Source: an uncultured Chloroflexia bacterium (lineage in GTDB: Bacteria; Chloroflexota; Anaerolineae; B4-G1; SLSP01). From it: a DNA stretch of 34,820 bases. How positions within the stretch are numbered: the first letter of the stretch is position 1; every line of letters begins with the position of its first letter. The notes beneath the pieces were generated by a model that saw nothing but the letters and a program-made list of their open reading frames with translations, ran no database searches and had not been told where the DNA came from. The stretch is taken from contig CAVVUS010000007.1 of NCBI GenBank assembly GCA_963751345.1, forward strand, positions 1-34,820. Direction: 5' to 3'. This document shows positions 1-4,522 of the stretch, piece after piece. The position numbers and the translations under genes were made by a program.

Positions 1-1
1 C

Positions 2-424
2 CTGGGACCCGACAAAGTGCGCGCTTCGTTCTATCACACGATCCGCCAGATCACGATCAACTGCCTGTGCCTCTGTCTTTTCGTGCCGTGGAGTCCCGAG
101 GAGCAGGTCAAGATCGTGCAGGCAGCGACGGGTTGGAATGTCTCGTCCTACGAGCTCTTCCGGGCGGGGGAGCGGGCGTTGGCGCTGGCGCGGGTTTTCA
201 ACGCGCGCGAGGGCTTTGGGCCGGAGGACGATCATCTGGCTGAGCGCAGCTACGGTCCCACGACCGGAGGGGCGTTGGCCGATGGTGGCATCGATCGCGA
301 GGCGCTGCGTTCCGCGATGCATACCTACTACGCGATGGCAGGGTGGGACGCCGAAACGGGCGTGCCGACCGAGGCAAAGCTCAACGAGCTCGATGTGGGG
401 TGGGCGGCGGCGTATCTGCCGTAG
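2..424 (+). CDS. Aldehyde:ferredoxin oxidoreductase family protein, C-terminal fragment (5' end outside window)
   Basis: Frame open from base 2; AOR C-terminal motifs CLF, ATGW, GER..LAR.FN.REG, YY..AGWD..TG.PT..KL.EL. Confidence 0.88.
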   Translation: MGPDKVRASFYHTIRQITINCLCLCLFVPWSPEEQVKIVQAATGWNVSSYELFRAGERALALARVFNAREGFGPEDDHLAERSYGPTTGGALADGGIDREALRSAMHTYYAMAGWDAETGVPTEAKLNELDVGWAAAYLP

Positions 425-435
425 CGTCCCGAATA

Positions 436-471
436 CAAAGACCGCACAGCTTAGTAGCTGTGCGGTCTTTG
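436..471. terminator. Bidirectional terminator-like hairpin between convergent AOR and csp genes
   Basis: Perfect 16-bp stem CAAAGACCGCACAGCT (436-451) / AGCTGTGCGGTCTTTG (456-471), loop TAGT, just after the AOR stop. Confidence 0.75.
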
Positions 472-509
472 AACTCACGGCTCACACCGTGACTCTCATT
501 GAGAGTGGA

Positions 510-740
510 CTAGAGCGCCTTCACGTTGGCCGCTTTTAGGCCCCGATCGGACTGCTCCACTGTGAACTCAACGCGCTGACCTTCCTGAAGCTCACGGTAG
601 CCGCCTACGCTGGTCTCCTGAATCGCTGAGAAGTGGACGAAGACATCCTCTCCACTATCGCGCGAAATGAAGCCAAAGCCTTTTCCGGCGTTAAACCACT
701 TGACGGTTCCGGTCTGCACTGCATTTTCTGTCTGTGACAA
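510..740 (-). CDS. cspA: Cold-shock protein (CspA family), about 76 aa
   Basis: [15 protein letters not shown] and [12 protein letters not shown] motifs; AAGGAG SD upstream of TTG at 740. The ORF-track start at 809 is probably too long; paralog identity is not resolvable. Confidence 0.93.
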
Positions 741-785
741 AGTACTACGCTCCTTACATCTAAAGTGGACGAAGTTCGGCCGAAC

Positions 786-823
786 AAAAAAGGCCGCCCA
801 GCTCAGCAAGAGTGGGCGGCCTT
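786..823 (-). terminator. Intrinsic-terminator-like hairpin inside the csp 5' leader
   Basis: 11-bp GC-rich stem (plus 790-800 AAGGCCGCCCA / 813-823 TGGGCGGCCTT) ending in T6 on the minus strand; lies between promoter and start codon. Confidence 0.6.
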
Positions 824-908
824 GGGGTTCACGACCTACACTTACTTCGTCCTACATTCAGCAGTATACCACAGAACGACACAATGTCGAGTTACTCCAG
901 ACCCAGGG
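800..908. repeat. Long direct repeat flanking the IS, copy 1 (109 bp; last 3 bp overlap the IS end)
   Basis: 800-908 equals 2385-2493 except C817/T2402. Confidence 0.95.
863..890 (-). promoter_or_regulatory. Sigma70-type promoter of csp (copy 1)
   Basis: Minus strand TCGACA (885-890), 16 bp, TATACT (863-868) with extended -10 TG. Confidence 0.65.
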
Positions 909-915
909 GTGCATT

Positions 916-1866
916 CTAGGACGGGGGCAAGTTGTCGTAGGCCTTTGACCACAGGTCGTTGAAGCGCGCCCTACCGGACATCACGGCCATACGCACCGGC
1001 AATAGGTTCTCGGCCCCCTGGCGACTCCAGCGCATTCCCGGTCCGGTGAAGCGGGCCTTGAACTGCTTGGCCGCACTCTCCACCGCCCCGCTGCCAATCG
1101 GCCAGCCCGCGTCACGCAGGTCCTGGTAGTGCATGCGGTCGCGATTGTTACGGAAGTAGCCTCCGGCCGTGCGCAGCGCCTTGGCGCGCTCTTCATCCGC
1201 TTCATGCTCCGCACTGGCCAAGAGATTCCGGGCGATCTGTTCGGCGTGCCCTTGGAAGAGCGCCTTGCGGCTGCGGTTATACCACTGGGTGCCGGCGAGT
1301 CCTCCTTCAGGGTACAGCAGCCCCTGGGCCGCGCTCAGATGATCCAGGGCATGCCACCAATCCACCCCCGCCACACTCGTATGAAAGTGTTCCTGATGCA
1401 GCCCCCAGATCCACGGAGCACCATCACCCAGCATCTGCGTGTCACACGCTTTGACCCACCCCCGCCGTTGCGCCTCCGCCCACACCTCCTTCCCGAAGGG
1501 TTCCGGCCCCCCGAGATGCGCCACGTAGCTCATGCCCACGGCGTGACCAAACTCGCCTTCATCCCCCGTGACCTCATCCACCCGGTGCTCCAACTCGACC
1601 CGGTAGACGGTCCCGATCTTGCACTCCTTCCACCCTTCGTCCCGGATATGCACCATCGCCCCATCTACGGCCACGCCCATCCGCTGCTGAGCGTCGGGGC
1701 GACCGCCGGGGGTGCTCCACTCCCGTGTGGCGGCCTTCTGCTGTTCTACTTCGCGTGCCAGTTCCTCTCCGATGCGCGTGCCCCACGCCTGACCGATGTA
1801 CCAGCTACTACTGGGCGCCAGCCGGATCTGGCCGATATCCGCCAACATCCTGGCTCGCTTCGGCAT
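916..1866 (-). CDS. ISKra4-family transposase, catalytic (DDE) part
   Basis: Motifs VAVDG, WKECKIG, GDGAPWIW, DWWHALDHL, PIGSGAVESAAK...GMRWS. The ORF start is probably artificial; it connects to the upstream ORF through frameshifts at about 1958 and 1855. Confidence 0.88.
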   Translation of the reverse strand: MPKRARMLADIGQIRLAPSSSWYIGQAWGTRIGEELAREVEQQKAATREWSTPGGRPDAQQRMGVAVDGAMVHIRDEGWKECKIGTVYRVELEHRVDEVTGDEGEFGHAVGMSYVAHLGGPEPFGKEVWAEAQRRGWVKACDTQMLGDGAPWIWGLHQEHFHTSVAGVDWWHALDHLSAAQGLLYPEGGLAGTQWYNRSRKALFQGHAEQIARNLLASAEHEADEERAKALRTAGGYFRNNRDRMHYQDLRDAGWPIGSGAVESAAKQFKARFTGPGMRWSRQGAENLLPVRMAVMSGRARFNDLWSKAYDNLPPS

Positions 1867-1946
1867 ACGGCAGACGCGCCACGACGCCCGTCACCAGCCT
1901 TTGCAGATGTGGACTCCACGGCGTACGCCGCAAGAGCCCCAGCGCC

Positions 1947-2318
1947 TCATCCAGGGGGAAAAACGCCCCGTTGACACTCGGGGCAGTAGTAGTGACCGCG
2001 TTCTAGATCGGTCTCTCCGATACTACTCACCACCCGTCGCTGTTTCTGCCCTTTGTAGCGCATCTCCGCCCCGCACTCCGCACAGCGGGGGCCCGGCACC
2101 GGTCGCACCTCTTCCCGCTGCCCGATCAGGGCTTGCATCAAGGCCTCGCCATACTTCTTCCGGGCCTCCAGCACCACCTCCTCAAGTTCTGCAAACGTCG
2201 CGTGCGGGTGGGCTGCCTGCCACGCGCTCACTTCCGTGTCAATGGTCGCCACGACTTCCTTCATGGCCGCTTGCAGTTCGGCTGCCTTCCGCTCTTCATA
2301 CGTCTTGTTGTCTGCCAC
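1947..2318 (-). CDS. ISKra4-family transposase, N-terminal ORF
   Basis: AGGAGGTG SD before GTG 2318; TFAELEE, CAECG...YYCPEC Cys motifs; ends at a TTTTTCCCCC run. Confidence 0.8.
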   Translation of the reverse strand: MADNKTYEERKAAELQAAMKEVVATIDTEVSAWQAAHPHATFAELEEVVLEARKKYGEALMQALIGQREEVRPVPGPRCAECGAEMRYKGQKQRRVVSSIGETDLERGHYYCPECQRGVFPPG

Positions 2319-2384
2319 GCTTCACCTCCTGGGCTTTGCCAGACCATTGTCTCTCTTTTGCCCCAGAGGTGAAATGCACCCCAG

Positions 2385-2493
2385 AGCTCAGCAAGAGTGG
2401 GTGGCCTTGGGGTTCACGACCTACACTTACTTCGTCCTACATTCAGCAGTATACCACAGAACGACACAATGTCGAGTTACTCCAGACCCAGGG
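2385..2493. repeat. Long direct repeat flanking the IS, copy 2
   Basis: Identical to 800-908 apart from one base; starts 2 nt after the right IR. Confidence 0.95.
2448..2475 (-). promoter_or_regulatory. Duplicated csp promoter (copy 2) pointing into the transposase
   Basis: TCGACA (2470-2475), 16 bp, TATACT (2448-2453) on the minus strand, about 130 bp upstream of the transposase GTG. Confidence 0.6.
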
Positions 2494-2503
2494 CGAATCT
2501 ATG

Positions 2504-4522
2504 TTAGGCGGAGATCCCGACCTCGGCCCGCTCCCAACGCGCCATCAGGCGGGCCAGTTCGGCTTCGACCTCTCTGTACTCGCGGTCGAGCGACTGCACT
2601 TGGTCCCACTCTTTCCCCTCGGTAGCGACGACCATCTGCCGGGCGAGGGCGTCCAGCCGCGCTTCCAGCTCGTGAATGGCTACGATGAGCGCGTCGATGT
2701 CAACCGGCGGCTTGGCGGTCGCGCCCTCCGTTCCATGTCGTCGAGTCTCTTTGCTTGTGGCTTCTGCCTCTGCAGCGGCCTTTCTCGCAGCGAGGGCTGC
2801 CTTCTCCGCATCACGGGCTGCGAGGTAGGCGGTGTAGTTCCCCGGATAGACGTGTAGGCGCCCGTCGCGCAGTTCCCACACCTGCGTGGCAAGCCGGTCG
2901 ATCAGATAGCGGTCGTGCGAAACCATCAACACGGTGCCCTGAAAGTTGCTGAGCGCGTCTTCCAGCATCTCCTGCGCCTCGATGTCCAGATGGTTGGTCG
3001 GCTCGTCCAGCAGCAGGAAGTTCACCGGCTGGAGGGCGAGAACCAGCAGCGCGAATCGCCCGCGCTCGCCGCCACTCAGCGCGCTCATTGGCTTGAAGAC
3101 GTCGTCGCCACGGAAGAGATAATGCGCCAGGACGTTGCGCGCTTCGCCAAGTCCCATGCGCTGGTATGCCTGGAGTTCGTCGAGCACAGTCTGGTCCGGG
3201 TCCAGGATCTCGTACGCTTGGGCGAAGTAGCGGATGTCGAGATTGGCGCCCAAGGTCAGCCGGCCCTTCACCAGCGGCAATTCGTCCAGGAGCGTGCGTA
3301 GAAACGTAGATTTCCCGGTGCCGTTTGCACCGATCAGAGCGGCGCATTCACCGCGGTGGAGCAGGAGCTCGTCGATCTCGAAGAGCGGTGTGCCCGGATA
3401 GCCGATCGCCACGTCACGCGCGCGGAGTACCTCGTTGCCGCCCCGCTGACTCATACGGAGACGGAGCCTGAACCGGTCGGTCGACGGGTCCGGAGCGCGT
3501 AGCGCTTTGACGGCGTGTTCGATCTCCGGAACGTCCCAGGTCCGCTTGGAGATCGCGGGGCCATCCTCCATGAACTCGCTCCACTTCTGGCTGAGCGCCT
3601 CGGTGCCCCCCAACGCCACCGCCTGGACCGCACGCGCCAGGCGCTTGAGTCGGCCTTTTGCCTGGTCGGAGCCGCTCGGCATAAAGCGTTTGATGTACTC
3701 CAGCTCCTTGAGGAAGCGCTCCTCGACCGCAGCAAACTCCTTGATGCGCCACGCCCAGCGTTCCTCACGTTGCATCACATAGGCCGTATAGTTCCCGCGA
3801 TAGGTCTCCAGTCCCAGCCCCCGCATCTCCCAGATGACGTTAACCACTTGGTCGAGAAAGTAGCGGTCATGGCTGACTACCAGGACGGCGCCGTCCCAGC
3901 GCTGTAGCGCCGACTCCAACCATCCGACGGCCTCAATGTCCAGATGGTTGGTGGGCTCGTCGAGGACGAGGAGATCCGGCTGCTCCAAGAGCAGGCGTGC
4001 CAGGAGCGCCCGCGTCTTCTGACCTCCGCTGCAATGGGCCAACGGCATGTGCTGCTGCTCGTCCTGGAAACCCAGGCCGGTGAGTACCTGCTGGATGCGG
4101 AGCTCGTACTCGTAGCCGCCATCCCTGGCGAAGGCCTCCTGGGCCACGCCATACCGCTCCAACAGCGCCTCGGTGTCGCCGCCGTCAGCCATCGCGGCTT
4201 CCATCCTGTGCAGCGCTGTCTCCCGGGCGCGCAGCTCAGTGAAGACGGTGAGCATTTCCTCGAAGACCGTGTGCTGGGGTGCGAGGAAGGCGTCGGCAGC
4301 TTCCTGCTCCAGGATGCCAATTCGAGTGCCCTTGGCGAGGGTCACGGTGCCGGCGGTTGCCGGCTCCCGTCCGACGAGGACTCGCATCAGTGTGGTCTTG
4401 CCCACACCGTTAGGGCCCACCAGGCCGATGCGCGCACCGCGCGGCACGTCGCCCGAGAGGCCTGCGAAGATGTCCAGGTCACCGAATGCTTTGCCGAGAT
4501 CGCGGAAACTCACTACCGACAT
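2504..4522 (-). CDS. ABC-F family ribosome-associated ATPase
   Basis: Two ABC domains (GPNGVGKT / SGGQ / LDEPTNHLD / VSHDRYFLD and GANGTGKS / LSGGE / LDEPTNHLD), no TM segments, C-terminal coiled coil; GAGGTG SD. Confidence 0.95.
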   Translation of the reverse strand: MSVVSFRDLGKAFGDLDIFAGLSGDVPRGARIGLVGPNGVGKTTLMRVLVGREPATAGTVTLAKGTRIGILEQEAADAFLAPQHTVFEEMLTVFTELRARETALHRMEAAMADGGDTEALLERYGVAQEAFARDGGYEYELRIQQVLTGLGFQDEQQHMPLAHCSGGQKTRALLARLLLEQPDLLVLDEPTNHLDIEAVGWLESALQRWDGAVLVVSHDRYFLDQVVNVIWEMRGLGLETYRGNYTAYVMQREERWAWRIKEFAAVEERFLKELEYIKRFMPSGSDQAKGRLKRLARAVQAVALGGTEALSQKWSEFMEDGPAISKRTWDVPEIEHAVKALRAPDPSTDRFRLRLRMSQRGGNEVLRARDVAIGYPGTPLFEIDELLLHRGECAALIGANGTGKSTFLRTLLDELPLVKGRLTLGANLDIRYFAQAYEILDPDQTVLDELQAYQRMGLGEARNVLAHYLFRGDDVFKPMSALSGGERGRFALLVLALQPVNFLLLDEPTNHLDIEAQEMLEDALSNFQGTVLMVSHDRYLIDRLATQVWELRDGRLHVYPGNYTAYLAARDAEKAALAARKAAAEAEATSKETRRHGTEGATAKPPVDIDALIVAIHELEARLDALARQMVVATEGKEWDQVQSLDREYREVEAELARLMARWERAEVGISA

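Follow-up and report, generated by a model that had tools for sequence, protein, structure and literature searches.

A solitary ISKra4-family insertion sequence flanked by a direct repeat of about 109 bp of native promoter DNA in an uncultured Chloroflexia bacterium

Contig CAVVUS010000007.1 (C7) of an uncultured Chloroflexia bacterium, one of 49 contigs in a 5.4-Mb genome assembly, carries close to its left end an insertion sequence (IS) of the ISKra4 family that lies between a cold-shock protein gene (csp) and an ABC-F ATPase gene, and that is flanked by a long direct repeat where a target duplication of 8-9 bp is the family norm. The window analysed here is the whole of this 34,820-bp contig, and all positions without a contig name refer to it. 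We think it likely that this is a solitary ISKra4-group element at a canonical target, and that the 106-110 bp repeat of native DNA arose from one non-canonical event on the side of its left terminal inverted repeat (IRL) and is not a property of the clade; our preferred account is one accident at this site, in the form of faulty repair or of a strand transfer that was not coordinated. An initial annotation of the locus was right about the structure, the family and the usual duplication length, but its proposal of a special integration mode in this clade is not supported, and it missed both the canonical promoter-upstream target and the identity of the repeated segment as the csp promoter and leader.

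The repeat occupies positions 800-908 (copy 1) and 2385-2493 (copy 2) and is the sole long direct repeat within positions 1-4000. Its copies match at 108 of 109 nucleotides, far beyond what is expected by chance, and the only mismatch is C817 in copy 1 versus T2402 in copy 2. This agrees with the initial annotation, in which a 109-bp repeat with one difference abutted both terminal inverted repeats. On the left the repeat overlaps the GGG of the IS terminus, and because of this overlap its length is ambiguous between 106 and 109 bp, the core of copy 1 being 801-906; on the right, two to four nucleotides (AG or CAGA, 2382-2385) separate the IS end from the repeat. Copy 1, found in the repeat search, contains the promoter of csp together with the 5′ half of its leader, and copy 2, found in the repeat search and again in a promoter scan, contains a second csp promoter and the leader hairpin without its left arm.

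An empty version of this site is present in a congener (G002, contig C13, positions 281999-283378, 93-94% identical), where csp and its leader hairpin run without interruption into a single copy of the segment and then the stop codon of ABC-F. Positions 281999-282471 of that contig align to window positions 436-908 and positions 282363-283378 to 2385-3400, and the overlap between the two alignments is exactly the 109-bp segment. The empty site that the initial annotation reconstructed by collapsing the IS together with one repeat copy is thus a real one, and the allele with a single 109-bp copy that it proposed to look for is the one found here. Because this site holds one contiguous copy and no IS, the segment is, on sequence comparison, native DNA and not part of the element. 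That it might be part of the mobile element and travel with the IS has next to no probability and is refuted by the G002 site: its position at both ends speaks for this and nothing more does, whereas the csp promoter and leader are native in IS-free G002, partial matches to the csp-proximal part of the segment (∼76 nt, 81-87%) adjoin csp in two other genomes, G011 and G015, again with no IS, and related elements end at GGGTGC...GCACCC with only short, non-abutting matches between their flanks. At the position where the two copies differ (817/2402) both G002 and a paralogous locus on contig C41 of the same genome have T, and copy 2 therefore keeps the ancestral base. A stretch of ∼3 kb between csp and ABC-F in G011 was considered as a second IS at this site and rejected, as it holds an ordinary 440-aa open reading frame (ORF) and has no IS ends.

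The paralogous locus, at C41:1-992, comprises an aldehyde ferredoxin oxidoreductase (AOR) gene, csp and the csp promoter and is 93-94% identical to window positions 1-906; G002 is more distant from both loci (∼87%) than these are from one another. The end of contig C41, which is homologous in position to the IS insertion, lies 15 nt upstream of the -35 box on that contig and looks as if an unassembled promoter-targeting element sat there. A test for a second IS copy next to C41 found no contig end in the assembly with an IS fragment or a matching 8-9-mer duplication.

The element spans positions 907-2381 on the minus strand (1475 bp), with ends GGGTGC...GCACCC that were placed from the inverted repeats, the family end consensus and the NF033572 matches; the right terminal inverted repeat (IRR), distal to the transposase start, is at 907 and the proximal IRL is at 2381. 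The terminal inverted repeats (906-930 and 2358-2382) have 25-nt arms that are 76% complementary, within the family range of 18-39 bp. A profile of 30 homologues yielded 80 metagenomic loci, in 48 of which both ends could be set by the pattern GGGTGC(A/G)TTT(C/T)A-N6-GGGGC, and the ends of the window element fit the consensus GGGTGC(A/G)TTT(C/T)A of these 48. Against NF033572, the NCBIfam model for ISKra4 with a cut-off of 205, the two transposase ORFs score 182.5 bits (C-terminal) and 35.6 bits (N-terminal), both below the cut-off only because the transposase gene is split; a full-length 466-aa homologue (P0010, 65% identical) scores 279.8 bits. The next-best family, ISLre2 (NF033529), reaches 52.9 bits, far below its cut-off of 200, and the NCBIfam models matched are ISKra4, ISLre2 and ISH6, with no IS4- or IS1634-type model among them; in Pfam the C-terminal ORF matches PF06782. 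On this sequence evidence the element belongs to the ISKra4 family with a p-MULT 4 Mutator-like transposase, and the NF033572 matches bear out the family first assigned to it.

The element is a new and rare member of the ISKra4 group, whose target choice and slippage signal have already been described for that group. The closest protein in a collection of 5.8 billion sequences (P0002) is 84% identical, 21 congeners hold nothing closer to the transposase than a partial match of 52%, no homologue at E≤1e-40 was found in 400 genomes of the phylum, and a GTDB scan gave one relative, at 30% identity. Within the assembly the IS is single-copy by blastn, tblastn and a Pfam PF06782 search. No other copy was found, and there is therefore no second insertion of the same element at which a duplication could be measured.

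Part of the ISKra4 group, like TnGBS and ISLre2, targets sigma-A promoters and inserts at a set distance of ∼16 bp upstream of their -35 box (Guerillot et al. 2014, PMC3942029, section 12). The csp promoter (863-890, minus strand) is of the sigma-70 type, with TCGACA, a 16-nt spacer and an extended -10 element, TG-TATACT, and agrees with the consensus at 10 of 12 positions. Because the IRR end at 907 sits 16 nt upstream of TCGACA (890-885), facing the promoter, the csp-side (left) junction is canonical for the group. Scanning positions 400-2700 gave only two sigma-70-like sites, this one (890-863) and its duplicate (2475-2448), both on the minus strand, with a mean of 0.5 in shuffled sequence. 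In 40 related loci the sequence extends 60 nt or more past the IRR end; a sigma-70-like -35 box lies 14-17 nt from that end in 16 of these loci, ten of them at exactly 16 nt, and on the IRL side a -35 box at 15-16 nt was seen in 4 of 38. The members of the ISKra4 group treated in the relevant part of PMC3942029 share with the window element the transposase family, the GGG/CCC terminal inverted repeats and the 16-bp distance from the -35 box, but the window element differs from them in its flanking repeat of 106-110 bp and in the two to four odd bases at one junction. The orientation is also that of TnGBS and ISLre2 (p-MULT 3), for which a part of the same paper describes insertion in a fixed orientation 15-17 bp upstream of sigma-A promoters, IRR facing the promoter, although these form a different lineage with weak homology only to the window element (NF033529 at 52.9 bits, and PF06782).

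The length of the repeat is what sets this insertion apart. For prokaryotic Mutator-like elements of all p-MULT families, the portion of PMC3942029 concerned with them gives direct repeats of 8 or 9 bp, and circular forms. No long repeat adjoins the ends in any of the 38 related elements whose two flanks each reach 12 nt or more; the best local match between 700-nt flanks is at most 24 nt long and is not contiguous with the ends, and flanks of 110 nt or more on either side are available for 23 of the 38. Short exact duplications are present in three elements, L062, L072 and L119, with lengths of 9, 8 and 7 bp, and all three become 9 bp when the ambiguity of the terminal G-run is allowed for (3 of 37). 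In the same genome, a 120-bp miniature element with IRL-like and IRR-like ends (C17:22125-22244) has an 8-bp duplication, GATTGGGC, and a TTGACA box 15 nt from its IRR-like end. These lengths accord with the 8-9 bp norm that the initial annotation had cited. Elsewhere in the genome we note a 61-bp derivative of ISKra4 type that resembles a miniature inverted-repeat transposable element (MITE) at C12:52510-52570, which lacks a clear duplication and has TTGACA at 15 nt from one of its ends; a further MITE-like element of ISKra4 type of ∼85 bp with less clear ends, around C22:110290-110372; and a 1253-bp segment at C14:178400-179652 that is bounded by inverted GGGAGCGCATCA...TGATGTGCTCCC and is possibly a small IS of a related group.

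The initial annotation raised a long-stagger or strand-displacement integration mode in this clade, and suggested measuring the flanking repeats of homologues found through the inverted repeat pattern. Such elements show no long repeats, and 8-9 bp where the duplication is clear, which by its own reasoning makes the case a one-off. That long variable duplications are the regular mode of the clade, as in IS1634 and IS1549, is accordingly a very improbable account. It would fit the abutment of the repeat to both IS ends, and repeats of 8-514 bp, with no mechanistic model, are described for the DDE elements IS1549 and IS1634 in part of PMC2266710. Against it are the complete lack of long repeats among the 38 relatives, the three relatives with 9 bp and the same-genome miniature with 8 bp, the published 8 or 9 bp for all p-MULT families (PMC3942029, in the portion cited above), and a right junction that is not a clean join of IS end and target. 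The likeness to IS1634 and IS1549 (IS1634 family, IS4-related) lies in the long flanking repeats reported in that part of PMC2266710; in those elements, though, long repeats recur from copy to copy, whereas the window element represents a single event among relatives with 8-9 bp. Neither the relatives, with no long repeat in 38, nor the transposase, which is Mutator-like and matches no IS4-type family, places it with the IS1634 type. The 106-110 bp at the window copy also departs from the 8-9 bp by which ISKra4 members are recognised, but the repeat length belongs to the insertion event and not to the element, and is no bar to membership of the family.

On our reading, the event behind the repeat was confined to the IRL-side junction. 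With the ends at 907 and 2381, the left flank finishes ...CTC CAGACCCAG, and the last nine of these bases (898-906) are those that a canonical insertion would be predicted to duplicate, given the 9-bp duplications of relatives. The right flank begins with CAGA (2382-2385), the first four nucleotides of 898-906, and then continues from 801 onward (GCTCAGCAAG...), copy 2 running into ...CAGACCCAG GGCGAATC; the final A of CAGA can also be read as base 800. The initial annotation had read the junction in this way for ends at 907 and 2381, and that reading holds with the ends set by the family consensus. Put differently, the structure is that of a canonical 9-bp insertion in which the IRL-side duplication is broken after its fourth base by a 101-nt duplicate of 801-901. 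The IRL-side junction is non-canonical, in that no reading of it gives a clean join between IS end and target, and its sequence points to a probable illegitimate joining. Template-switch paths through CCCAG (797-801 and 902-906) or CTCAG (802-806) were tried and rejected, their predicted junctions being 1-2 nt off the observed CAGAGCTCAG.

Homologous recombination between two copies of an IS inserted a short distance apart on sister chromosomes is the classical route to apparent long duplications, and here the two canonical insertions would lie ∼106 bp apart. This account demands no new chemistry, and the right flank fits native positions 797-805 at 7 of 9 positions. It predicts an exact join, however, and the flank CAGAGCTCA differs from the native CCCAGCTCA by two adjacent mismatches, or else contains 2-4 extra nucleotides; moreover, a target at ∼800 would be inside the leader and not 16 bp upstream of a -35 box, and so not a preferred one, and the element is single-copy and carries a lesion. 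We regard this route as improbable.

The junctions are known from the assembly, and the locus could also be an artefact or a mixed population, in which the chromosome is empty and the IS with one repeat, whether a molecule of its own such as a 1585-bp circle or a minority allele, was threaded into it during assembly. A 91-nt identical stretch joins four edges of the graph and gives two consistent short-read paths, the IS lies 900 bp from the end of the 34.8-kb contig, the 900 bp to its left have the 93-94% paralogue on C41 that stops at the homologous point, and reads across the junctions are lacking. On the other side, the assembly contains the three junction sequences in a single copy each, the difference between the copies is linked to distinct flanks, and no other contig end has an IS fragment or a matching duplication. 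The one-base difference speaks for two physical copies and against a collapsed node in the graph. We know of no intermediate in the form of a circle with a 110-bp spacer, and such a circle would itself be derived most simply from a chromosome with the arrangement repeat-IS-repeat. On balance this account is unlikely.

We return to the single aberrant event at a canonical target. The insertion most likely began as a normal event with a 9-bp stagger that would leave CAGACCCAG on both sides, the IRL-side copy of CAGACCCAG then being split behind CAGA by templated copying of the 101 nt at 801-901. This could have come about by faulty gap or break repair with template switching, a route put forward in the initial annotation and compatible with the CAGA remnant, or with templated filler, by illegitimate exchange between the IS-bearing and the empty sister chromosome, or by a 1585-bp tandem duplication (801-2385) from which the second IS was later lost between its 9-bp repeats. 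The main alternative within the same explanation is an uncoordinated strand transfer, in which IRR would have joined at 906/907 and IRL within the hairpin loop of the leader, at a distance of some 106-110 bp.

The repeat boundary at 800/801 coincides with the junction of the left stem arm and the loop of this stable csp leader hairpin. A true single-step target duplication can be imagined, by a Mutator-like transposase that is tethered to the transcription machinery at the csp promoter and that places IRR 16 bp upstream of the -35 box and IRL ∼106-110 bp downstream in the hairpin loop, the DNA there being exposed by hairpin extrusion or by an RNA polymerase that pauses or terminates; we consider it improbable. 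If true, it would mean that promoter-targeting p-MULT transposases read the positions of RNA polymerase and not DNA sequence, and that stagger lengths are set by transcription complexes. There is no evidence here for new transposition chemistry or a new transposition mechanism.

Several points weigh against our interpretation of an aberrant event at a canonical insertion. The case is a single instance, and because of this the routes to it are inseparable. CAGA has a chance probability of about 1/256, which weakens further once alternative alignments are taken into account: the right flank may correspond to native 797-805 save for two neighbouring mismatches, in which case the repeat is 110 bp long and meets the IS end exactly, or to native 799-CAG plus an insertion of AG. 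Among microhomology paths to the junction, only a 1-nt overlap (A) fits. Apart from the three elements with clean duplications, 3 of 37-38, no duplication is seen in the relatives; this is probably due to chimeric flanks where metagenome contigs run through repeats, but such flanks would hide long and short repeats alike, and the sample is therefore weak with respect to rare long repeats. Literature on ISKra4 and direct repeats contained no duplication of ∼100 bp, a result that reflects mostly titles and abstracts and leaves aside the per-element lengths in tables S1 and S2 of PMC3942029. Finally, the assembly is unverified at the junctions: the best public run holds 0.33 of the sampled words of the locus, and the contigs obtained from four runs (123-445 nt) lie inside the IS and over csp, none spanning the repeats or the junctions.

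The transposase gene departs from its full-length relatives, which have single ORFs of 466 aa; the window copy needs two +1 frame changes. Its N-terminal ORF (1947-2318, minus strand, 123 aa, from the ORF list and NF033572) has a CxxC...CxxC motif, and its C-terminal ORF (916-1866, minus strand, 316 aa, matching PF06782 and NF033572) holds the catalytic part. At the first change (1954-1985, minus strand) a GC-rich hairpin (1985-1964), flagged as terminator-like in the promoter and terminator scan, stands directly 5′ of TTTTTCCCCC, a T5C5 run at 1963-1954, and the downstream ORF is in the +1 frame, as would be expected for a change of the slippage type that is also predicted in relatives. Of 81 elements, 67 have a +1 change at this position and 76 have a T/C run, which is T5C5 in 47. 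In an IS of Roseiflexus, according to the portion of Atkins et al. 2016 (PMC5009743) that deals with it (its reference 99), a hairpin in the nascent RNA together with T5C5 yields mRNA lacking one C; the two elements have in common the hairpin, TTTTTCCCCC and the +1 downstream frame, the frame that loss of one C from the mRNA would call for, the likeness resting on the signal sequence and slippage in the window element being a prediction. The passages of PMC3711429 consulted contain no mention of T5C5. Because the same change occurs in 67 of 81 elements and has the Roseiflexus precedent, the first frame change is a normal and known expression device of the group by predicted slippage, and the signal of hairpin and T5C5 appears to be the rule in this ISKra4 clade.

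The second frame break (1849-1851, minus strand), placed from the reading frames and by comparison with the 81 elements, is specific to this copy, with one extra base nearby. It is unique among the 81 and is absent from a ∼97%-identical 445-nt soil-metagenome contig and from P0002, and is either a lesion of the window copy or a sequencing error.

The csp gene (510-740, minus strand; Pfam CSD, 1.3e-27) has a TTG start, chosen from the sequence, 8 nt after AAGGAG. Its leader (735-858, minus strand) has a stable predicted fold (-49.4 kcal/mol, z -4.27), in which a long outer helix surrounds a terminator-like hairpin with a U-run (785-826, minus strand), the arms of which are at 792-800 and 813-821 with the minus-strand T-run at 790-785. 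Two compensatory pairs distinguish the hairpin from that of G011 in the alignment, and at one position of the stem G002, C41 and repeat copy 2 have an A.C mismatch where copy 1 has a G-C pair. An Rfam scan of the leader gave only a sub-threshold match to the cspA thermoregulator (31.3 bits versus a gathering score of 78). The leader may be of the attenuator type and may also terminate transcription of the ABC-F gene (2504-4522, minus strand; two Pfam ABC_tran domains and ABC_tran_Xtn), which lies beyond the IS.

On the other side of csp, and convergent with it, is the 3′ end of the AOR gene (2-424, plus strand; Pfam AFOR_C, 1.9e-28), which is cut by the contig start. Between the two genes lies an inverted repeat (431-476; 21 nt, 90% complementary, with a 4-nt loop) that is kept in C41 and G002 and is probably a terminator common to AOR and csp.

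The consequences of the insertion for transcription are suggested by the arrangement of the locus. Through copy 1, csp would keep its own promoter and an intact leader, and the ABC-F gene would have lost the hairpin that probably served as its terminator. The promoter in copy 2 (2475-2448, minus strand) is predicted to read through a truncated leader hairpin and the IRL end towards the transposase start, and could raise transcription of the transposase.

Two by-products of the analysis are more solid: the 40 uncurated metagenomic elements provide independent support for insertion 16 bp upstream of promoters, and the slippage signal of hairpin and T5C5 is widespread in the clade (67 of 81). If the junctions are real, this is a Mutator-like prokaryotic IS with a flanking duplication on the 100-bp scale and with its empty site in hand, and it serves as a warning for IS annotation pipelines that are restricted to short duplications. 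It would also show that a strong promoter can be duplicated through insertion of an IS, with the second copy directed at the transposase gene.

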